Assembly (NCBI GenBank): GCA_029717555.1
Contig: JAMDHS010000041.1
Location: forward strand, 170,332 to 190,331
Length of the DNA: 20,000 bases
From: Peribolospora baueri
Lineage: Eukaryota
Direction: 5' to 3'
The notes below the pieces were generated by a model, which was not told where the DNA came from, made no database searches, and saw nothing but the letters and a program-made list of their open reading frames with translations. The position numbers were made by a program, and so were the translations under genes. Below, piece by piece: positions 1,916 to 18,556 of the stretch (its first letter is position 1; each line of letters opens with the position of its first letter).

Positions 1916-1929
1916 TATATAGTATATAT
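1916..1929 (+). promoter_or_regulatory. TATA-like element upstream of the IML2-like proximal ATG 2096
   Basis: TATATAGTATATAT followed by a CT-rich tract and caaATGG at 2096. Confidence 0.4.
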
Positions 1930-2095
1930 CTTCTCGGACGGGCACTGTCCACCTGGCAAGCTTGCTTGCGATCGACGCCGCCCTCCGCTTCCATCTCCTC
2001 CCTTTCCTTCGAGTCCCGCTCTCTTCTCTCTTCTCTCTTCTCCCTCTTTTCTTCCTTCTACTCCCCCCTCTTCCCTTCGTCTTCTCCCTCTCCAA

Positions 2096-5000
2096 ATGGC
2101 CTCCGAACCCCGCTTTCTCACCTCGGACCCCTACTCCTCCTCTCGTCGGCCCCCCTCCCGCTCCTCTTCCATCTCCTCCCTCCTCAGGAAACGCAACTCG
2201 CACGCCTCCTTCAACGACGACGCCGCATCCACCTACCGCGACGATGGCACCGCCGCCTCCATCCGCTCGTCCACCGTTTCCAAAGGAAGCAAGCTCTCCT
2301 CTCTCTTCTCCCGCTCTAATAGCGCACATCTCGATACCAATGGCAAAGCCAACGGCACCACCCCCCGAGACGACGCCCTAGACGCCGACCTTTCCACCCT
2401 GCCCATCCGCCCGCGCACCCCCTCGACGAGCTCCAGAAACGCCACCTCCAAGACCATCGGTAAGATCTTCCGCCGCTCCTCTCGATCCACCGCTCCCTCC
2501 CGCGTTTCCGACATCGACGCCGCCGACGACGCCGCGCCCCCGCCGTCGCTCCCCGTCAGCGCCAACGGACACGCCCCCAACGCCGACGACGCGCAGCCGG
2601 CCAAGGCGGAGGATGTCCCGGCCCCGGCCACCACCGCCGTCGAGCAAGGCAAGCTCGACGTGCCGCTCTCAGCGTCTCCCACCGATATCCGTGACCAGGA
2701 CGCTGCTGCCCCCGACTCGCCCGTAAGGGAAGGCCTCGGCTTTGCCGAGAACGGCGAGTCGGACAGCAGCAGCGAAGATGAATTCTTCGAGGCCTACGAA
2801 GCCGACCTGGCCGCCATCGCCGAGGACGAGGAGGACGACGATGTCGCGTCCCCTTCCACGGCCGCCGCCGCTGCTCGGTCCGCTCCCGCAGCCAACATCA
2901 CCGACCACGCCGGACGAGCGTCGCCTGAGCCGTCCAACGAAACCGACCTGGAGGGCATCCGCGCCCGCAACCCAGAGCTGGCCAAAGCGCTTGAGGGCAT
3001 CCCCACGGAGGATCTGTTCAAGGCGGTGAGCGAAAAGGCCAAGGAGCAGACGGGCAAGGCGTTCCGATTGACGTTCCAGGACGTCGTTCAATCCGAGGAC
3101 GAGATGAACGCCGACCTGGGCGAGGCCAAGAAGGCCATGGACCTCTTCCTCAACTCGAGGATGCTCGAGGCCGAGTCCATCTGCATCCGTCACGCCAGCT
3201 CGCAGCTGTACTACTCTGTCGGTTACGCCCTGATTCAGTTCATCAAGTCGCTCATGACCTTTGAGCCCGCCGACCTACACCAGGCCATCGATCACGCCAA
3301 GGACAGCTTGCACATCTCGTCGCTCCTCCGCAAGCACGTCGGCTCCATCTCCTCCGTCACCCGCTTCGTCCGTGGCACCGGCCCCAGCCCGTCCGCCATG
3401 GCCGGCATGACCCGCGTCCAGCGCCACGCCGAGCTCATCTACGGCGAGAGTCTGCTTCTCAAAGCGGTCGTAGGAATCGCCTACTCGGGTGACTTTTTCG
3501 CCTTTGTCAAAGAGGCTCTCAACATGCGTAACGCTTACGGAATTTATAGGAGCTTGGCCAAGTACGTCGAGTGGGCAGACGCTCAGGCCGTCAAGCGTGG
3601 AGATCCGAGGGATTTGAGCTTGGATGAGGACTTCCGCAGCGGCGTTTACCTCGGTAACGGCCTCATTAGCATGATCCTCGGTCTCTTGCCCGGAAAGGTC
3701 CTCAAGGTCATGGAGGTCAGTCGACGTTCCGTTCCGGTCGCGGTGGTCCCATACTCAGCTTAAACTGACACTTTTCCTTTCCTTTCCTTTCGTTTCTAGG
3801 TCTTCGGCTACACCGGCGACAAAGTATACGCGCTCAACACGCTCGCCAAGGCCGCCGACTGGTCGCATGATCCGGATGAGAGGGAGCCAGGGGTCGAACC
3901 GGAGAACGAGGGCGTTAGGAGGCAGATTGTGAGTTTTGGAAGGGGCCCGTCAAGCTCGTCGGCTCCGTCGCTGACATGCGTGCTTCATCTTTTCGCCCGT
4001 GCCAGTGCGACCTGGCCATCCTGTTGTACCATCTCCTCTTCTGGACCTACCTGCCCCTTTCCAACCCATCCGTCGACATTGACTTTGCCGACAAGGTCCT
4101 CCACTACAACCTCCGCAGGTACCCTAAAGGCATCTTTTTCCTCTACTTTTCCGGACGCCTTTACTCTAGCCAGTGTCTCGCCGAGAAAGCCATCAATCAG
4201 TTCCAGACTGCCTTGGGCGCTCAGAAGGAGTATTTGCAGTTGCAGTGAGTAGATCGGCCCGGCCTGGGCAGCGAACGATCGTCATCACTGACTGTCCTGT
4301 CCCCTCGATCGCCCTGATCGTCGCTTCCCAGGCACATCTGTCAATGGGACATTGTACTCTGTCGCCTCGGCTTGTGCGACTTTAAAGAGGCTTACAAAGG
4401 TCTTACTATCCTCCGTGCCGAGTCGAACTGGTCCAAGGCCGTCTAGTGAGCGCCTTTCCTTCCTCTGCCTGTCTCCGCGCCTGCCTTATCTTGGCGTCGC
4501 GCCTCGCCGTCTCCACCCACTGAAGCGTGGCGCTTTCTACGCCCGTTTTTCCGTCGTCATGCAGCACGTACGGCATGGCCTGTTCGCTCTACGAGATGGG
4601 CGAGGACCCGAAGAAGGCGGCCGAGCTGTTCGCCTCGGTGCAAGACGCGATGCGGCGCATTGGTGGCAAGTCCATCCCCGCCGAGGTGAGCTCTCCGTCC
4701 CGCTCTCCGTTCGATTCGACTCGACGCTGAGTTTACCCTACCCGTACCGCTCGACGTCTCGCAGAAATACGTCGCCCGCAAGGCAAGAAAATTCCAGAAG
4801 CAGGGAAGGCTCATCATCCCCGGCATCGAGTTCTCCTACCTCTACCACTGCCTCAGCATGGCACCCCGATGGTCGCTCGCCGAGAACACGCTCGTGCGCA
4901 TCAGCGATGCGTTGGCAGAGTTGCATGCGGTGGAAGATCCGGAGACGTATGGCAAGGATGCGGACGAGTATTGGGACGGTGAGCTCGCGTCCGACGCCAC

Positions 5001-5789
5001 ACGCTCCACCGGCTCGCGGTCGTGTTGACCATTTTTGCTGGCTTCCGTTCGTTCTCCGACCGACCGTGGGACAGATTTCGCCCTCTGCCACTTCATGCGC
5101 GCCGTCACGTTGAAGTACATCGCTTATCCCGAGCCGCATGCCAAGGTCAACCCTCCGGAGAGCCCGTGAGTGCCCATCTATGACTCTTGGTGTCTCTTCT
5201 CTTCTCTTCTCTTCTCATCTCATCTCGTCTCGTCTTGTCTCGTCTCATCTCATCTCGTCTCGTCCATTCCAGCATCCCTATCGAAGAAGCGACAGAACAG
5301 GCGCTCCTGTCGCTGGAGAACGTGATGAAGAACGGCGGAAAGATCAAGCACGATCATTGGCTCGTTTACTTTGGTGAGCGTCTGCGACCTTCTCCTTGCG
5401 GTCGTCGGCGCGAAGCTGCGCTGAGGTAGCGCGCTGTTGACTGATTCGATCCGTCCCTCGCAGCACACTACGAGCTCGGAAGGTTGTACGCGGCGATGGG
5501 CGAAGACGAAAAGGCGGCGGAGCAGTTCGAGCTCGTGCTCAGCCAGAAGCCGCTCGAGGACAGAGGCCGAAAGGGCAAGTACAGCCTGCAGAACATGTGT
5601 CTGCTTCGGAGCAACGGTGCCCTCGATTCGGTGAGTGACCGGGCCCAAATGATCGGCTCTGTTGAATCACCTCGCCGAGTATTGTCATGCATCATCGTCT
5701 CACCCGTCGTTTCGGTTCTATCCCCCGGCTTCGTATGCGCGCAGCTCAAGACGAAAGAAGGGCAAGGAAACGGACGACCGGCTCATTGA
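2096..5789 (+). CDS. IML2: Iml2/TTC39 (DUF3808) family TPR-like protein, ~946 aa from ATG 2096 (~966 aa if the upstream exon 1529-1680 is spliced to 2188)
   Basis: Exons joined in frame at GT..AG introns: 2096-3715, 3800-3928, 4006-4244, 4332-4445, 4565-4685, 4765-4978, 5075-5165, 5273-5373, 5464-5630, 5745-5789 (2841 nt, ends TGA). TTC39/Iml2-like segments: AMDLFLNSRMLEAE, FIKSLMTFEPADL, HAELIYGESLL, NMRNAYGIY, FRSGVYLGNG, VFGYTGDK, YPKGIFFLYFSGRL, ESNWSKAVY, GKSIPAEKYVARKARKF, AHYELGRLY. Long S/A/D-rich disordered N-terminus. Confidence 0.85.
5193..5264. repeat. Degenerate (TCTCN)n pentamer microsatellite within IML2-like intron 5166-5272
   Basis: tctcttctcttctc...atctcatctcgtctcgtc. Confidence 0.85.
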
Positions 5790-6509
5790 ACTAAGTCTTG
5801 AGGAGATCTCTTGCCGACGCGTTTCTCGTCCTCGCCGGTCGATCCGTGGTGACACTTAGAACGCTTCGCCTTCTCTACTTTGCTTACACTACCTCTTTTC
5901 GCCTTGTCGACTGATCTCCTCTCTGTGCTTGTGCCCAACCAACTATCCGCGCCGTCTTCTCCTTCGACGGCGTGCACTTATCTCACTCTTCTTGTCCTAT
6001 CTCTCGCTCTCTTATTCCACTTTTTTGTCTTCTCAATCACCCCGGATCGTCTGTCTGTATTGCCCTTTTCCTTGCCCTTCTTCTCAAGCCAGATCGTCCC
6101 TTTTCCTTTCCTTTCTCGACTCGTCCCATGTCCCAGTGCGACCTATCCTGTCCTACCGCCCTCGTCGTCCTTGGGCCACTCCCTCTCTTCTATGCTACGC
6201 TCCTCCCGTTCCGTTTCTTGACTTTTTTCTTCTTCGTTTCGTTTCGCGAGGCGGAGGACGCGTCTCGGTACATTGCACATGTGATGTATGTCTTTTTCGA
6301 GGTCTGACCGACTTGTTGTGGATGAAATACCATTTCCGTGGGATGCTGGAAATGAATTGAGTGGATGTGTCTTTCCTTGTCCGACTTGTCCTTGTCGTCG
6401 TCCATCCTTCGGTCCTCTCTTCCGTCCTCGTCCCGCCCTCGCTTGCCACAAGGACGCGCGCGCGCGGACGACGGGAGTGTTCGACGCTCGTAACAAATCA
6501 GTGTCGCGT

Positions 6510-6529
6510 GATTGAGCACGTGCTCAATC
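6510..6529. promoter_or_regulatory. Perfect 20-bp palindrome centred on an E-box (CACGTG)
   Basis: GATTGAGCACGTGCTCAATC is its own reverse complement and lies ~210 nt upstream of the CBS-domain gene ATG. A regulatory role is inferred. Confidence 0.5.
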
Positions 6530-7868: not shown

Positions 7869-8951
7869 GCGGGAACGGGGAACAGGAACGGGAAAGGTGG
7901 TGGCGGCTGCAAACTCGGGTGGAGGTTTGGGAGTGGGCAAAAGAAAAGCGAGAAAGATGTGATGTGGTTTTTTATATCGCATCCCGCTTCGGTCCGAGTA
8001 CGGACGCGACTATTCAATGCGACGCGCTTTTTCTCGGATGTGCGCGAGGCACACTGCTGGAAGAAGAGCGATGGTCGGATTATGGAGAGCCAGAGGGAAA
8101 GGAGAGGAGAATGGCAAGGCAGACCCGATAAGGAATCGGTCGATAGGTCTACACGTCTTCAGGCGGGCTTCCCGGTAGCCACCAAAGTTACTTGGGGGTT
8201 CGTCGTAAGCCTTGGATCTTGGGCCGAGGCACACTGCTGCGTCTCCGTCATCAGGGACCATTGGCCTCATTGGCAGGCAACACACTAACTCTGAGCGGCC
8301 AAAGTGCTCCGGCCCGGACGCCCATGACGCCGAGTCCAAGATGAGCGAGGTTGCACCCAGGGGCCCAAGTCGGCCCTACTGGACATGTTAGCCTGGAGAC
8401 GCAGCCGTAGACGGACGGAGAGAATGGGTAAGAATGAAGATGACAGTGGTGCTGGCTCGTGATTGGTCGTTTGCCCGCAGGGGGGGACGTAAGACGGATG
8501 GTAGCAGTTCCTTCCCCATTACCATGAGACCTCTGTTATTGTCTTTGTTTTCTTCTGCCTCTTGCGTTCAGGTCGACGTCGAGATTGGGTCGGTAGGACT
8601 CTCGCAGTGACTGTCAATGGCACCCCATCTGCGAGACATAGAAGCTGCTCGTGATCAGCGATTCAAAAAGCTCTATTATTTCATTTACATTCGTCTCCGA
8701 ACACTCTATTGGTCGACTGCGGCCAGCTCGGTGTCACTCGCTGCCACAGCCACCGGATGCCGACTGACAACGACTCGTCGCTCCCGCTCGGTCGTCCGTT
8801 CTTCACTCTCCAGTCCGGAGACGATACCTCGTCTTTCTTGACGACGTACGCACGCAGGACGACAATCGCCATCTTTCCCTTCGTTACAGCAGCCTGCCGC
8901 TACGGCGGCGAAGGCGGCAACGACGACGACGAAGCTTAGGAGGCGTAAAGC

Positions 8952-11900
8952 ATGTCCCACCCGCCCCCTTTGCCTCCCAAGGATGCAGTGACAGGAGGGT
9001 CAGTATCAGCAAAAGAAACAAGCGAGGAAGGGGGGATTGAAGGATCACACGATGCGGGAGATGAGCGAACGAGAGCGCCCGCCATCGGCGTGAGCGCCGG
9101 CAGCCGCACTCCCACCTCCCTCGACGTGCCTCCTTCCATCGAGATCCCCCAGGCGTCCTTATCCCCCTTGTCCATCTTTCCCTTGCCCACCCTGTCACCT
9201 GGCGAACCGCGCACCGACCTGCGGTACCTAGCGGATATGTCTCAGTATCGTTCCAGTGCTTCGACGACCCGTCCCACCCCTTTCCCTCCCTCTCAGACGC
9301 AGGCTATGGCGGCGGGTAGGTCCCCAATGCCACCGCCGCCCCCACCCGGTGCTCCTTTACCTCTCCCTCTCCCTCCACGGCCTCCGATGGCGGAGCTTCA
9401 GGGAAGCATGGCCGCAATGGCGGTCCAGTCGCCGAGCGATGGCCTCGCTAGCGACGCGCTGTCGCCTTCCGCCGACCACCTCCAAGCCGGTGCGGCAACC
9501 GTATCAGTGGCCGACGCAGCGCCGTCGGACAACAAGGGATCGTCGCCGCCACCACCTGCATATGGATCCCACGCCTTCCCCGAAAATCCACCTCCCTTTC
9601 AACCGGGGCGCTTCCCCCGCTGGCGAGGATGGCTTGAGAAGCGCGCTCTGGATCGAAGGTTGGGAGCCGAGCAGGACGCACAGGAGGGCTCCGGGCCGAA
9701 GCGAAAGCTCAGCTGGGGTCCCACTGTTGAACGCGGCATCAGCTTTAAGGGTCCCTCTCATCAAGGCCGTCCGGGGGGCTCTTCTTGCGATCAAGCACGA
9801 CCGCGCTCCCCACTTCACGTCACCTCCTTCGGCAGCCGGTTCATCCCTCAGCTCTCCTCGGCCCCTCTCTGCGCCGTGCCTCTCAGCGTGCCGCGCGGAC
9901 ATGGCACGGGGAGCAGCTATGAGGCGCTGCATGGCGGGAGAGAGAGGAAGGTGCTCGTCGTGGGCACCGTGGAAGGGCTTTGGGCGGTCGAGTTTCGAGA
10001 CGAGACGAGAGGGAGTGAGGAGATGATGATGGGTCGGGAAAGAAATCAGGAAAAGGGGTGGAACGGGCCTGTGCGATGCGTTCAGGTGGGTAACAGCGGC
10101 CTACGGGGCTATCCTTCTGTTTTAGCGCCTGCGCGGGCGAAGCAGTCTTTCTTACTCCCACCTTATCTCTTCTCGACCGCACTTGCCCAGGTCTGGTCTG
10201 GCCAAGGCGTCCATCAGCTCTCCGTGCTCCATTCTGCTGCACCGCCGAAGCCGGCGACCGCTTCACACCCTTTCGCCCTGGGAGAACCAGCCCCGTCGTC
10301 TCCCTCGCCAGCTTCCTCTATCCTGATCGCCCTTACCGTCCCTGTGCCTTCCGCCTCCCGCCTCACGAGTACCCTCAGCTCCTTCTCCTCCTCTCTTGCT
10401 GCTCAATTTTCCGAGGTATTCAAGCCCAAAGAGGAACGAGGGGGGGAGGCGCACGCTGGGTCTGGCAATGCCGGTCATGGAGATTGGGGTAAAAACGGAC
10501 CCTCCACGCCTCAGCGGACGAGTCAGGCGGCCATCCAGGCTTCCGGTGGAGGCACAGTTAGGATGTGGAACTTGGAGGCGATTAGGAGGGTAGTAGCATA
10601 CGCTCTCGATGAAGAGGTGAGCGGGAACAACGTAACAGCACTTGAAATCCGTCACGACCTTGCTTCCTCCACTTATGGCCCTTCGCTTCTCCCAGTCTCC
10701 TCGCCCCTTGGACCTCTCGGCCCGCTCGGAGGCGCAAGCCGCGTCAGACGACCGCAAGGGCAAATCGCTCGCTTCGGCCTTCCGCAAAGCTTGGTCGCAG
10801 ATCGGCGAAGGTCCGTACGGTCGTATGGACCGCGACGACAAGGCCGCAAAGGTTGCCGCCGCTCGCTCTCAAAGCCCCAAGGGAGGTGCGTCAGCTCGAG
10901 CGGAGAGGGCCAAGGCCTCGGAGTTTTTTGTGGAACCCTTGCCTCCAGGAGCAGGGGCCGCACAGAGCAAGCTCGCACAGCGCGCCCTCGAAGGTCACGC
11001 GACGGAGGGTGATGATGACTGGCTCATCTGGGGTGGTACCGGGGGCACCGCTGCGTCTTCGCCGGTTTCGCCGGTAATGATGCCCCAAGATCGCAAGCGC
11101 ATCTCCCTCGACGGCCTCACGCCGCCGCTTACCCCTCCGTTGCTCAGTCCAGGTGTACCGGGAAGGAAAAGGGTTAGTGGCTTCTTAGGCTCTTCCTCCC
11201 CTGAGCCGGAACCGAATCCGAGGGAGAGGGCGTACGCGAGAGCCCTGCGCCTTGCGCTCTCCAGTGTCCCCATCAGCAGTTCCGGCTCCAACCAGGGTAG
11301 CAGCTCGAGCTTGGAGTACGGTCCACACCTCGTCCAAGTCTCCACGCGATCCACACACCGTTCCACCAATCCCATGGTCGATCCTCTCGCGCGCCAATCC
11401 GAACTCGAAGCCGCAGGCTTCGCTAGCCGTCCCACCCCGACCGTGGACTCTGGACCGGGGCAGAAAGGCAAGGGCAAGGAGGATTTCGGCACTTCGGATG
11501 GAGAAGTCGCACCACAGGGCGTGAAGTGGGGAAAGCCTGTGCTCTTTTTCTCGGTACATCAGGAAAAGGGAGCGTGGTATCTTGCTCTGGCGACCAGCAA
11601 GACGGTGCTGCTATACGAAGCTGTCGAGCCGAAAGGCGAGGACAAAAGGGCATGGAGCTTTGTCAAGGTGGGCGAGCGGTTCCTTTTCGTCACTGGCTCG
11701 GTTGGCTGTCCCTTCGTGTTCAGATGACGCTTACCGTGTGTCGCCGGTTTGATCTTTTACGTTTCAGGAGCTCTATGCGCCTTTCCCTCCACGAACGATC
11801 TCCTTCCTCACAACGCAGACCACCGACCTAGGTCGCTCAGCTTCCACCGCCGGGCCACGAGGAGCCCAGGCCGCGTCCTCGCGACACAGTCGCACTGCGT

Positions 11901-13306
11901 CGACACCGGCCATGACCAACATTGGCTCAAGCTCGGCTTTGTACGGCCCCGGGGCTCTCCGACCTGGAGGGAGCATGCCACGGCGAGAAGACTTGAGCAT
12001 CCTCGTCACCTTTGGCAAGAGCGCTGTTCTCATCCGTCTCGCTGACTCGCAGGTGCGAGAGGTGGATCTGGCATCTACGAGCAGGCCTGGTAGCGTCATT
12101 TCATTCGATGGTGACGCCGGCTCGTCCGTCGCGTCTGGGTCGAGGACCAGAAGGCTCAGTGGCGGCGCGGCGAGCGTCGCTTCGAGTCACGCTGTTAATA
12201 AGGAGCACTGGCTTGCCGCTGAGATCGTGGAGGCCAAGCTTCGACCGGCGCCGCGGCGTCGCACTGGCGTGCAGCTCAGGGACGAAGTATTGCCACCAAC
12301 TGGTCGGCGTGACCAGGTCAGTCAACCGTCGGGGGCGAGGTCTGGACAACAGGAGGTGGATCCTCGTTTTCCACCTGGCGAGGCTCCACGTCGTGATGAT
12401 GGTCATGCTTTTGATGGGCAGGCGGGTGACGGTGGTGGTGCGGAAGATGGCTCAGACGGATGGACGTCCTCCGATGATGACAACGACGATGACGATGATG
12501 AAAACGGCGACGCAGCACGCGGATTTGATTCTTTCGCGGGCGGACGACGGTCACACCGATCCAGCCTGGGTGGGAAAGACAAGAGCATCAAGATGAGCGT
12601 ATGTCTCCTTACCAAGGGCCACCAGACCCAGGTGTTTCCTCTCCCTCTCGCGCCGGACATTTCCGAGAGCCGGCCGCTCAAGGTCGTTCGCTGGCAAGAG
12701 CCACCGACGAGATTGACTGCGTTCGCACGAATCGTGGACGTGCAGAGGCGCAGCGGGGCTGCGGCGTCGCGTGAGGCCGGTGGCGTAGGTGGAGGAGGTG
12801 GAACCGGGACTGGCTCGACGTCGGAAAATCATCAGGAGCGAAAGCAACGAGCGAGGACGTCGGGCAGTCACACGTCTTCATCCTCCTTGGCAGCTACGTT
12901 AACGGTGCTCCTAACTGTGGTCGCCTTCCTCCCCTCCCGTGTGGAGTTGCGTCGCACGATGATCAACGTAGAGGCACAGCTCCCTCCTCGACTCGCCTTT
13001 TCTCCCGGCTCCGGCACCTCTGCCGCTCTCAAGGAATTGCTCTCGTCTTCCGCACCCGTCGCTCCGGGCCTGCTAGCCCAGCCTGAGCTCTCGCTGAATG
13101 TGGAGACCGAGTTTGAGACGGGTATGCTCGTCACTGACGCAGAGCCGGAAAGCATGGCACCGAATTTGGGACGAGCAGTGGCTATGGGCATGGGCCCGTC
13201 GTGGGAGCGCAGCTCGCCAAATTCGAGTCTGAGGACGGGCGCCTGGGCTTGGGAGATGAAAGGCTGGGAGGACTGGAGGGTGTTGTGGATCGACGCGCAG
13301 AGTTGA
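8952..13306 (+). CDS. Large hypothetical protein (~1356 aa) with Pro-rich N-terminus and a probable divergent CNH (citron homology)-like beta-propeller
   Basis: Exons 8952-10085, 10191-10616, 10696-11667, 11768-13306 join in frame (4071 nt). Beta-strand-like blocks VLVVGTVEGLWAV, VWSGQGVHQLSVL, VRMWNLEAI, LFFSVHQEKGAWYLALATSKTVLLYE, FVKELYAPFPPRTISFL and VVRWQEPPTRL resemble CNH-domain segments. The gene model is more certain than the domain call. Confidence 0.7.
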
Positions 13307-13743: not shown

Positions 13744-15598
13744 ATGCCCTCCCCGCCCGCCCTGCCTCGCGTAGGCGCCCACCTCCTTCTCTCCTTCCCA
13801 GCGCCTCAGGTGCTCCTCATCAAGCTGAACCGGCCCCAAGCCCTGAACGCCATGACGGACGCGTTGCAGGACGATATCAGGCGGACAATCGTTTGGGCTG
13901 AGCAGGAGCCGGAAGTCCGCGTTATGGTCCTCACCGGAGAGGGAAAGGCTTTGTGGGTTGCCACGGACGACCTTGTCCTCGAGTGGCATTTGAAGCTGCC
14001 CGATTGTCTCTTTTGGTGTCAAGCTGGTGCGGACACGCTGACGGGAAGTTTCACTTTCCTTTCGTACGTACCTCTTGTTTGCTGTGTCAGCTGCGCTGGG
14101 CAAGATCTCAAAGAGTAAGCTGAGTTCTCAGTATTACCACCAGGGTGTCGCGAGCACGAGCACGCGCCGGCCATTAGACGGAGGCTTGGCCAACCTCGTG
14201 CGTGCTCTGACTCACCAACTCCTTGTCGTCTGATCACCACTCGTCTTCTAGTTGGCTAGGCAGGTACACATCCAACCCAACTGCCTCTGCACAGATTGCT
14301 CGATCGTCCGATTCGATCAAGAAGGGCGGCTTTGGGAGTGTGAGTGCGAGGAGGATGAGCAAGCCCATGATCGCTGCCGTTGATGGTATCGCTATGGGAG
14401 GCGGGATGGAAATGGTGGTGAGTGATGCGAAAACTAATGAAACAGCATCTGTCGGTGTTGATCATTGTCTCTCTGCTTGACGCTTCCTTTCAACCCTTTT
14501 CAGGTCAATTGCGACCTTGTCATTGCCTCGTCCAGGTCTCGATTTGCTTTGCCTGAGGTGAGCAGATTCCTTCCCTTTCTTGTGGTACTGTGACACAGCG
14601 CTGGATGCCCATAGACTACTCGTCAATGCTAAGGCGCCATGGCAAGGAGACAAAGAACGACAGGCCCAAAGTCAACGTATACGTCATCAGCGGCGGAGAG
14701 CTCATAGAAGTTTGTACCACGCTCGACTACTTCAAAGCGATGAAGCAGACCACAGAGTTCTATGTCTGACCCTTAGGCGAAGGTCGCGTGAAACTTTGTG
14801 CTCTGCTTCACGACTCTGAAGTAGACAAATTTGCTGCTACCTACGTCCACGGACTCTCGGTAGCTCCATTGCTGATTACGTAGACGATGACCTTGGGGGC
14901 CTGTCGTTCTCTGCCTCCTTACCTGATACTGTGTGTAACGTCTTGCTCACTCGTTCTTACTATGCCTCATAGGTCTGCCGCGGCGTCATAGCGGCACAAG
15001 GGGCCATCCCTCGCCTTTCCCTGATCGCCGGACATCAGCGCGCAGCAGAACTGCTCTTGACTGGACGAGCGGTGAGCGCACAAGAGGCGCACGACAGGTT
15101 TCGGTTTGTGAACCAGGTCGTCTCCGTCGCCACCGGCGAGCGGGATGGTCATGAAAAGGTCGTCCGAGAAGCCTTGCGGTGGGCGGAGATGATCGGGAAG
15201 AACAGTCCTGATGCTGTTCAAACAACGGTGAGTAAGGGGGTGACAAACAGTCAACTTGATCGTACCTATTACCTTGCCTTATTTTTGCCGTCGAATATGT
15301 CCGTTTGTTTCCCCACGTTGCAGAAAACTGCGCTTCTTCTCTCCCTCGAGGAGAATGTCCATGATGCGACGATGGAGTGTTTGGAGTCGGAGGCCGCCCA
15401 GAAGCTATACGGAGGCGAAAACATGATGGAGGGGCTTAGGGCGTTCAAAGAGGTTGGTGCTTTCTCTTTACGCTGTCTTTTAGACGTCTCCTCCGAGGCA
15501 CGCTTCGGAGTTGCGCTTACGGACTTCCTTCGTCTGTTGCATGGTGTGTCGAGCAGAAGCGCGAGCCACGCTGGACAAAACCATTCTCCAAGCTCTAG
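13744..15598 (+). CDS. Enoyl-CoA hydratase/isomerase (crotonase superfamily), peroxisomal, ~292 aa
   Basis: Exons 13744-13952, 14091-14114, 14252-14417, 14504-14557, 14973-15227, 15324-15452, 15557-15598. Motifs LNRPQALNAM, LTGEGKAFCAGQDLK, KPMIAAVDGIAMGGGMEMV, CDLVIAS, FALPEV, ELLLTGR, EGLRAFKEKREPRW. Both catalytic Glu positions are present. The protein ends -FSKL* (PTS1). Confidence 0.92.
14641..14923. repeat. Long imperfect inverted repeat (fold-back) within intron 4 of the enoyl-CoA hydratase gene
   Basis: ggcaaggagacaaagaacgacaggccc (14641) pairs with gggcctgtcgttctctgcctccttacc (ends 14923). ctacttcaaagcgatgaagcagaccacagagtt (14727) pairs with aactttgtgctctgcttcacgactctgaagtag (ends 14824). 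The apex is gaccctt-aggcg-aaggtc near 14777. Confidence 0.9.
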
Positions 15599-16049: not shown

Positions 16050-17960
16050 ATGGAGGTGGGCGCAGCAAGACGAATATCCTCATCATTTCAAATTGCAGCG
16101 CGCAGAGCGTCGCCCCGAAGAGCTCTCGGCCGACCACCGTCCTGTCATTCCCGTTCCACCTTCCTACCCTTGCCGCCTTCATATGCCGCCCCACTCTCCA
16201 CGTCTCGCTCTCGGCCAAGATCCTCTCAATCAGAGACGCGGTTGAAATGGTATCCCATTCCTCTTGGCTTGGGTATGGCCTTGTTGGTGATCACCCACGC
16301 GCGACACAAATGGAACAAGGAAAAAATAGTTGACGAGCGCGGAGAGGTCATCCGGCCAACCGGGCCGTGGTCCGTGAGTGCTGTGCTGCGCTTAGTTCAT
16401 AGCTTCATATCATGTGGCAAATGATCTAAAGATTTCCTTCTCTACCCTCCGACGATTCTCCCTCTTGCGATCAGGTTTATGTCATCGGCGCCCTTCCCCT
16501 CAACACCCTCTCCCGTGTCTGGGGATACCTGAACTCACTCACCCTCCCTATCTGGTTCAGGCCCTTTGGTTTCAAGCTTTACTCATGGGTCTTTGGCGTC
16601 AATTTGGATGAAATTGAGAACGATGATTTGACGAGCTACGATAGTTTGGGCACCTTCTTTTATCGCCGACTCAAGCCTGGCGCGAGGCCGATCGACAAGG
16701 AAGCTGCACTGGTGAGTCGGCGACTTCCGGAGGCTTCAGCGGTCGTCTTGATCTGTCTCGTTAATTTTTCTTTCCGAACTCCCTCCAGGTGTCGCCTGCG
16801 GACGGAACGGTGCTTCACTTTGGAAGTATAGAAGGAAGAAGGATTGAGCAGGTAAAGGGTGTGGCCTATTCCTTGGACGCATTCCTGGGCCTCGGATCCT
16901 CGCCGCCCGCCGAGAGAGGGGGCGGTGCCCGCATAGTGCAGTTCGACAACCGCGACCACGAACTCGTGGATGATGAGCGTTTCGCTTCCGTCAATGGCAT
17001 CGAATACTCGCTCGATCAGCTATTGGGCGACGAGCGGCGACTGGGTCAGCAGGACTCGCTCGCCAAGGGTTGGGCCAAGCTCAGTAGTTGGAGATGGTGG
17101 AGGAGTTGGATGTGGCGCGACGCGGGACAAAAGTTGGAGGACGCGGCGACGACAGACGCGGACACGCTCGCCGTCACACGGCCTGAGAAGCTCGGCCCAC
17201 CGGAGAGGGCGGCCGAAGAGGTGGATGCCAGCGTGGAGAGCCCAGACTCGGCGGAGAAGCTGGGCAGGTACGCCAGCGTGGCGTACGAGATGGGCACCGC
17301 CGCTTTGCCGCCTGTTTTACAGCCTCGCAGCCCCGGCAAGGAGGCGGTTCAGCCAGGGCACAAGCTGTTCTACACCGTCATCTATCTCGCGCCGGGTGAT
17401 TACCATCGATTCCATAGCCCCACGAACTGGGTCGTGGAGCGAAGACGGCACTTTCCAGGGGATCTCTACTCGGTCTCGCCCTGGATGGCTTCTCGACTCT
17501 CCAATTTGTTTGTCCTGAACGAGCGAGTTGCGCTGATCGGGAGGTGGAGATACGGCTTTTTCAGCATGATCCCCGTCGGCGCTACCAACGTCGGTAGCAT
17601 CAAGATCCACTTCGACAAGGTGGGTCGTCTTTCTTCCTCCAAGCTGGTGTTGTTGACGGTCGTCTGTATTCACGTTAAACGCTTTTGTACTCGTTTTTCT
17701 CGATGTACCAGGCGTTACGCACCAACACGGTCGACAAGCGTCCCCCTCTGGGCACCTTTTCCGAAGCATCCTACGCGGCTGCCTCTCGTGTTCTCGGTGG
17801 CCAGCCTTTGCCAGCGGGCGAAGAGATGGGAGGCTTCGGACTCGGCTCTACTGTCGTCCTCGTCTTTGAGGCTCCCGAATCATTCCGCTTTGTCGTCAAG
17901 CAGGGTCAACACGTTTGTGTCGGGCAGCCGATCGGGGTCGTCGAGGAGTCTTCCCGATAG
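16050..17960 (+). CDS. PSD1: Phosphatidylserine decarboxylase proenzyme, mitochondrial type, ~546 aa
   Basis: Exons 16050-16373, 16475-16711, 16789-17619, 17712-17960. Arg/Ser-rich presequence and a hydrophobic segment ([15 protein letters not shown]). Motifs [57 protein letters not shown], and the [15 protein letters not shown] autocleavage motif (LGST). Confidence 0.96.
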
Positions 17961-18556
17961 GCATAGAGCATGTTAGCCTGCAGTTGTATGCTCCTGTCAT
18001 TATCTAGTTTTGACCAGATTTGTACTCATACCGCGCACGAATCACGATATCTTAAGAGACATGATAAATCTGCCAAGTCGGGCTCCTACGATCAGGAGTT
18101 TTCGCGCAAGCGGCATCATTAACAGATCTCGAGCGAGACCGACGGTCTGCAAAACACACCTCAGTCAGCCTGTAAAAGCTGGACTGTAGTTCGTGGTACA
18201 TATAGGCAAAAGAACAGGAAAAGAGAGCGTCTATAGAAGGGAATTGGTAGTAAGCACATACGTGACGACGGCGATTCGTTAGTCGACCAGCCGACGTCGA
18301 TCGTCGATCACCGTCAGTGCAGTCGTCGATCGCGCCGATAAGAACTTCTTGCCGCCTGCGACCATCAGCAGCGTCCATGCTTCGGCATTGAAAGGGAAAG
18401 AGGTGAGTACAAGAAGGAACGAGTCGGCGCAAGGACAAGGTGGATGCCGTCGTGCGTCAACCTCGTTGAGTCTCCTTGGGCGTCGCTAACGACGGAGCAT
18501 TCCGCATCGTCGTCTCTATTTCCAATCTACCAAGACCAAGACGAGCAGTTGCAGAG

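Follow-up and report, generated by a model that had tools for sequence, protein, structure and literature searches.

A 283-nt imperfect palindrome within an otherwise ordinary intron of an enoyl-CoA hydratase/isomerase-family gene of Peribolospora baueri

Why is the fourth intron of a seven-exon gene several times longer than its neighbors, and what is the fold-back that fills most of it? These questions are raised by a stretch of 20,000 nucleotides (nt) from Peribolospora baueri (GenBank assembly GCA_029717555.1, contig JAMDHS010000041.1, positions 170,332 to 190,331 of the forward strand), which we call the window and number from its first letter. The gene (13744-15598, plus strand), a fungal gene for the breakdown of fatty acids, encodes an enoyl-CoA hydratase/isomerase-family protein of 292 amino acids (aa), and its intron 4 (14558-14972, 415 nt) holds an imperfect palindrome of 283 nt (14641-14923). 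A sequence-only reading of the window had offered three explanations for this fold-back: a substrate of Dicer released from the intron, a structure that shortens the effective intron, or a decayed fold-back element, possibly a miniature inverted-repeat transposable element (MITE). We used repeat finding, folding against shuffled sequences, self-comparison of the window, and family and protein searches to evaluate these explanations. With a probability of about 0.55, we favor a palindromic insertion or an inverted duplication, now decayed, which would be tolerated through looping out of the pre-mRNA.

The repeat finder and the folds reproduced the coordinates and the anatomy that the sequence-only reading had given for the fold-back. 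The best-kept part lies at the ends, where a left terminal arm of 27 nt (14641-14667) is 89% complementary to a right terminal arm of the same length (14897-14923). The outer arms continue inward with bulged pairing between 14668-14703 on the left and approximately 14862-14896 on the right, and reach an asymmetric, poorly paired middle in which the left side (14704-14726) differs by insertions and deletions from a longer right side (14825-14861). Next come two inner arms of 33 nt (14727-14759 and 14792-14824), which are 82% complementary and lie 32 nt apart; the apical 32 nt between them (14760-14791) carry a short stem-loop of their own near 14777. The arms align end to end around this apex, and the apex is itself included in the symmetry.

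Either strand of 14641-14923 folds as a single long hairpin, and the comparison with shuffled sequences bears out the fold-back on both strands, with none of 200 shuffles folding as well in either case. The RNA fold of the plus strand reached -133.0 kcal/mol (shuffle mean -81.3, standard deviation 5.0, z -10.3) and that of the minus strand -156.7 kcal/mol (shuffle mean -86.7, standard deviation 4.9, z -14.3), while DNA parameters gave -66.2 and -73.8 kcal/mol. The hairpin also stays intact when the complete intron 4 is folded (-165 kcal/mol, z -7.5, equaled by none of 100 shuffles). Raw energy is not unique to the palindrome, as seen in a series of 283-nt sliding windows with a 100-nt step (which missed the palindrome itself), where a region of 70% GC near 2501 reached -160 kcal/mol on the minus strand; the valid tests are the shuffle z-scores and the self-comparison. 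When the 20 kb were compared with themselves, the palindrome was recovered on the opposite strand as a high-scoring segment pair with an E-value of 1.75e-17 (68.4% over 301 columns). Only one other minus-strand pair was found at E<=0.01, a 20-nt palindrome at 6510-6529, and 14641-14923 is the sole substantial inverted repeat in the window.

The symmetry ends well inside the intron. The six introns of the gene measure 138, 137, 86, 415, 96, and 104 nt, so that intron 4 is 3.0-4.8 times as long as the rest, in agreement with the three- to fivefold excess noted from the letters. Without 14641-14923, intron 4 would be 132 nt long, beside five sister introns of 86-138 nt. These 132 nt consist of an 83-nt 5' part (14558-14640), which includes the 5' splice site, and a 49-nt 3' part (14924-14972), which is rich in pyrimidines over part of its length and includes the 3' splice site. 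A duplex between the two flanks had an energy of -19.9 kcal/mol, while the shuffles averaged -21.1 kcal/mol (309 of 500 as good), and the flanks joined as one 132-nt sequence folded with a z-score of -0.87 (59 of 300 shuffles as good), as compared with -0.22 to -1.07 for the five other introns. Because the complementarity of the flanks is at the level of chance and the joined flanks fold as the other introns do, the symmetry is a discrete block within a normal intron. Intron 4 thus looks like a normal intron of ~132 nt with a discrete 283-nt fold-back.

An extension of the symmetry to the splice sites was considered and rejected. In the fold of the intron, the GUGAGCAGAU of the 5' splice site does pair with the region of the branch point; this pairing was dismissed because the consensus sequences themselves make GTGAG complementary to CTCAC, and the pairing of the flanks is at shuffle level. 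The intron begins with GTGAGC and carries CTCAC, TTACT, and CATAG within its last 27 nt. Branch points have a consensus of the general form CTNAC, and by this measure CTCAC (14946-14950) and TTACT (14957-14961) are branch-point-like motifs on the plus strand.

The gene model places intron 4 in phase 0 (GTGAGC...CATAG), between the residues ...FALPE and VCRGV.... The model was built by reading the sequence and has seven exons on the plus strand (13744-13952, 14091-14114, 14252-14417, 14504-14557, 14973-15227, 15324-15452, and 15557-15598), of which exon 5 matched the Pfam family ECH_1 (enoyl-CoA hydratase/isomerase; E 3e-07). A protein search with exon 5 returned two homologues at E<=0.001 among 198 candidates (P0001 and P0002, each 55% identical), and the alignment of each with the spliced product is collinear. 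Both span the exon 4/5 junction (residue 151, …FALPE/V.RGV…) without a gap, and on this alignment 14558-14972 is therefore a true intron that adds nothing to the protein. Nor did the palindrome show coding content of its own. Two open frames, of 85 and 70 aa, lie over it, and the other four frames contain stops. Neither of the two matched a Pfam family (best E 0.11, short of the cut-off), and when the 85-aa frame, which crosses the left arm, was searched against 1.84 billion representative proteins, no match reached E<=0.001. A derivation of the arm from coding sequence was rejected on these results.

In a global alignment, the left half and the reverse-complemented right half agree in 100 columns and differ by 14 transitions and 13 transversions; a further 29 columns are gaps, most of which fall in the asymmetric middle (14704-14726 and 14825-14861). 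Since 27 of 127 aligned columns differ (~21%, plus insertions and deletions), the palindrome would be the product of an old event, provided that its arms started out identical, as we infer. Substitutions of both kinds in near-equal number, together with the gaps, amount to a divergence that is unselective in kind and that resembles decay rather than maintained pairing. The statement in the sequence-only reading that the arm differences are mostly transitions is not supported by these counts. Its further statement, that some differences leave G-U pairs on one strand and some on the other, was correct in that both types occur, but the split leans to the minus strand. In a table read by eye, 11 of the 14 transitions (seven A/G and four C/T) give G-U pairs on the minus strand and three (two T/C and one G/A) on the plus strand (binomial p 0.057). 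The minus-strand fold has 113 pairs, all on the main axis and 13 of them G-U, and the plus-strand fold has 103 pairs, of which 90 lie on the main axis and seven are G-U. A cause resembling repeat-induced point mutation was considered for the one-sided transitions and rejected; the contexts read by eye were mixed (one TG-to-TA, one GG, and two AG) and had no consistent signature, and with four sites the sample is too small for more.

We also searched for relatives of the palindrome and for traces of its arrival. The sequence-only reading had seen neither a transposase nor a clear target-site duplication, and the searches of the open frames and of both ends were likewise negative. Within 12 nt of either end of the palindrome, a strict scan found no exact repeat of at least 4 nt and none of at least 7 nt with one mismatch; a relaxed scan of 15 nt on either side of each end gave a best score of 3, which was equaled or exceeded in all 300 of 300 flank shuffles. 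Searches of the window by blastn with the palindrome and with intron 4 returned only the self and self-reverse matches, and a 24-nt degenerate motif of the arms, with up to three mismatches allowed, occurred in the window only at the two terminal arms (0.00 expected). The same motif had no matches in prokaryote genomes, a result that is uninformative for a fungus. No Rfam family matched the window at gathering score, and the sole permissive match within 14450-15050, to CRISPR-DR60, scored 16.3 bits where the gathering score is 45 (E 6.1) and was set aside as chance. An origin from a transfer RNA (tRNA) or an element of the short interspersed type was rejected, as there were no tRNA genes and no tRNA-like part.

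Among known systems, the palindrome most resembles a fold-back or MITE-type intron insert. It is short (283 nt), non-coding, nearly all self-complementary, and intronic, and it ends in inverted termini (27 nt, 89%). It differs from MITEs in that it has no target-site duplication, occurs only once in the window, and has no link to a transposase. Its long inverted arms are shared with FB-like fold-back elements, which have tandem sub-repeats within the arms; inside 14641-14923 we found no direct-repeat family and no tandem array. We do not file the palindrome as a MITE because it fails the duplication test. It is a known kind of thing, and this example matches no family among those tested.

We propose that an ordinary intron of ~132 nt was present before it gained a palindromic DNA segment of ~283 bp, either by insertion of a non-autonomous fold-back or MITE-like element or by an inverted duplication in place. 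The arms would then have drifted apart by the substitutions and gaps counted above. The segment, which would have no sequence-specific function, would be transcribed in the host pre-mRNA and fold on itself, and intron 4 would still be spliced out normally. With the stem closed, the 5' splice site would lie ~109 nt from the branch point rather than ~391 nt, distances that were counted on the sequence to the CTCAC motif taken as the branch point. The segment may be tolerated because its self-folding keeps this distance at ~109 nt. The restoration of an ordinary length by removal of 14641-14923 is consistent with this proposal. So are the homologues, whose gap-free alignment over the exon 4/5 junction indicates that the protein requires no content of intron 4. 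It is also on record that regular introns of fungi can carry inserted repetitive elements (PMC3609843). Of the explanations offered from the letters, that of a decayed fold-back element is strengthened by the confinement of the symmetry, the ordinary remainder of the intron, and the lack of coding content and of an Rfam family, while its MITE form failed on the target-site duplication.

Several findings weigh against this proposal. The one-sided wobble (11 of 14 on the minus strand), which is borderline and comes from a small sample, is the single observation not predicted by plain neutral decay, and the minus strand folds better than the plus strand by 23.7 kcal/mol. The terminal 27 nt are the best preserved (89%), and the hairpin is very stable despite the divergence of its arms, so that a structural constraint may be present. 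The missing target-site duplication speaks against families with long duplications. Duplication lengths differ by transposon superfamily, and at the divergence seen here a duplication of 8-10 bp should remain visible, whereas one of 2-3 bp could have decayed. Finally, the palindrome, as a putative mobile element, has no second copy within the 20-kb window.

The palindrome may instead have formed in place with no mobile element, if a template switch or a fold-back break repair copied ~140 nt in inverted orientation and left one arm as original intron. This is a variant of the favored reading, scored for origin only, and we consider it possible at rather low odds. It would accommodate the lack of a target-site duplication, of another copy in the window, and of tandem sub-repeats in the arms, and also a symmetry that runs the full length, including the apex, and is not limited to the termini; but the original intron would then have measured ~270 nt, double what the other introns of the gene measure, and no nearby match to the arms was found that might have served as a template. 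From the window sequence alone, such a product would have the same look as a single-copy transposon relic. A different question is whether the hairpin is used. In an explanation that we find doubtful, and that could hold together with a transposon origin, an imperfect duplex of ~130 bp would form in the excised intron or in an antisense transcript and be cut by Dicer into small RNAs directed at a target elsewhere, as a hairpin RNA or microRNA-like RNA (milRNA) source. The hairpin is long and highly stable on both strands, every one of the outer 27 positions is paired in the minus-strand fold, the three mismatch sites as G-U wobbles, and pairing is kept on this one strand by 11 of the 14 transitions. 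MITE-derived microRNA genes are known as well, with Made1/mir-548 as the example given in an excerpt of PMC1784062. The strand that folds better, however, is antisense to the host gene; no adjacent minus-strand gene was recognised, and the two nearest identified genes, the host gene and a phosphatidylserine decarboxylase gene, are both on the plus strand. Transitions do not exceed transversions, no Rfam microRNA or other family was matched, and the window contains no complementary target (self matches aside, the strongest match had 12 nt and E 0.67, and the rest were of at most 19 nt with 84-100% identity and E>=2.3). Fungal milRNA and long-hairpin small interfering RNA (siRNA) loci do share with the palindrome a stem-loop in non-coding, transcribed genic sequence. 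Well-supported fungal milRNA loci are nonetheless short hairpins with an inter-duplex distance of <20 nt and are very rarely wholly intronic, with Cryptococcus as an exception (as stated in a section of PMC9757828); the palindrome, at 283 nt and 103-113 pairs, is far larger and lacks closely spaced duplex arms. RNA interference (RNAi) has also been lost in some Ustilaginomycotina, such as Ustilago maydis, and kept in relatives such as U. hordei, according to a portion of PMC7763443. The negative Rfam search likewise lends nothing to a small-RNA precursor, and our analysis yielded no supporting evidence for a Dicer substrate or milRNA precursor as proposed in the sequence-only reading. The stronger version, in which the palindrome is a working long-hairpin locus, released by splicing or transcribed in antisense, whose Dicer-made siRNAs or milRNAs act on a target elsewhere, and which may belong to an undescribed family of palindromic intron elements without target-site duplications, seems a little more doubtful still. 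If it were true, antisense transcription of the hairpin would be the reason that 11 of 14 transitions keep G-U pairs on the minus strand.

Two further explanations look to the intron itself. It is very unlikely, in our estimate, that the hairpin is a selected splicing structure, kept to bring the splice signals together, to time splicing, or to promote intron retention. The stem does separate the 5' splice site from the branch-point-like motifs, and its closing would cut the path from ~391 to ~109 nt, and to this extent the geometry upholds the earlier suggestion of a structure that shortens the intron, but nothing shows selection for it. Helices that bridge these sites and reduce the effective distance do matter in some yeast introns, such as the RPS17B type treated in part of PMC2536676; those introns are long by nature and their helices join short segments, whereas here a stem of ~130 bp, far in excess of what bridging needs, hides its own 283 nt. 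The intron without the block is already normal (132 nt), and the hairpin would cancel only the cost of its own presence. An equally slim chance attaches to an introner-like origin, in which the whole of intron 4 would be a recent gain from a proliferating, internally symmetric intron family. Greater length and more stable folding than in regular introns are hallmarks of the multi-copy fungal introner-like elements as presented in one portion of PMC3609843, and intron 4 is both longer and more stably folded on the plus strand (-0.398 kcal/mol per nt; the other introns range from -0.185 to -0.314). It also lies at an AG/GT exon junction, as the only one of the six introns of the gene, and it is internally symmetric with no flanking duplication. 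Symmetric, proliferating introns without flanking duplications, the sister (stw)introns, exist in Hypoxylaceae, where inverted repeats of 45-55 nt stand at the intron termini (PMC8469720). These known families are multi-copy and carry terminal repeats that include the splice sites, but in intron 4 the symmetry is internal and leaves out 83 nt at the 5' end and 49 nt at the 3' end; these flanks are ordinary and as poorly complementary as their shuffles. No further copy was found in the window, and Pezizomycotina were the only fungal group in which a 2022 survey found introners (PMC9860276).

The importance of the locus depends on which of these explanations applies. If the palindrome is a decayed insertion or duplication, it would matter little, as another palindromic insert that rides harmlessly in an intron and, by folding on itself, barely alters the effective intron length. 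Its importance would be greater if small RNAs are made from it, as a long-hairpin RNAi locus hosted by an intron, in a group of fungi with patchy RNAi. The same holds if the block is present in many genes, as it would then bear on the growth or the origin of fungal introns.

The host protein has features of its own apart from the intron. Relative to P0001 and P0002, it has an 8-residue insertion in exon 5. Its last exon (15557-15598) ends in …KPFSKL, and a C-terminal SKL is the classic peroxisomal targeting signal, so that the protein is probably peroxisomal. Downstream, 16765-17976 is an exon of the phosphatidylserine decarboxylase gene. In a search that found 3741 proteins at E<=0.001 among 8000 scored candidates, its best matches, which are unnamed, were 61% identical, and the best named matches were from Violaceomyces, Thecaphora, Pseudozyma, and Sympodiomycopsis (54-57%), all Ustilaginomycotina. 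The source organism thus looks like a basidiomycete of the Ustilaginomycotina type; a search of a protein atlas had given broad taxa only. As the best identity is only 61%, the protein collection contains no close relative of the source organism.

Elsewhere in the window, a stretch with 70% GC (2501-3000) lies inside a long open frame (1916-3763), where it encodes a low-complexity sequence rich in Ala, Pro, Asp, and Ser; the C-terminal part of this frame matches Pfam Iml2/TTC39. The 283-nt windows of this stretch fold at about -160 kcal/mol on the minus strand, equal in raw energy to the intronic hairpin. Four short tandem repeats occur at 174-219, 606-660, 1710-1756, and 5192-5264; three of the four are pentanucleotide arrays, (TTGGC)x9, (CGATT)x11, and (GTCTC)x14.6, and one is a tetranucleotide array, (CTTT)x12. 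Three stop-to-stop frames on the plus strand (8949-11012, 10636-11727, and 11753-13306, with 687, 363, and 517 aa, respectively) matched no Pfam family at E<=0.01, and the region 8949-13306 may contain one or two large genes of an unrecognised family. A 19-nt inverted pair (5755-5773 and 6064-6082), 95% complementary with its copies 290 nt apart, lies in a CT-rich stretch with a fold z-score of -5.5. This pair was considered as a relative of the intronic palindrome, with whose terminus it shares GGCAAGGA, and was rejected because its interior is not palindromic; the shared sequence is probably due to chance. The 20-nt palindrome at 6510-6529, the only other inverted repeat at E<=0.01, is perfect (GATTGAGCACGTGCTCAATC) and has a CACGTG core, and it could be a putative site for a dimeric transcription factor.

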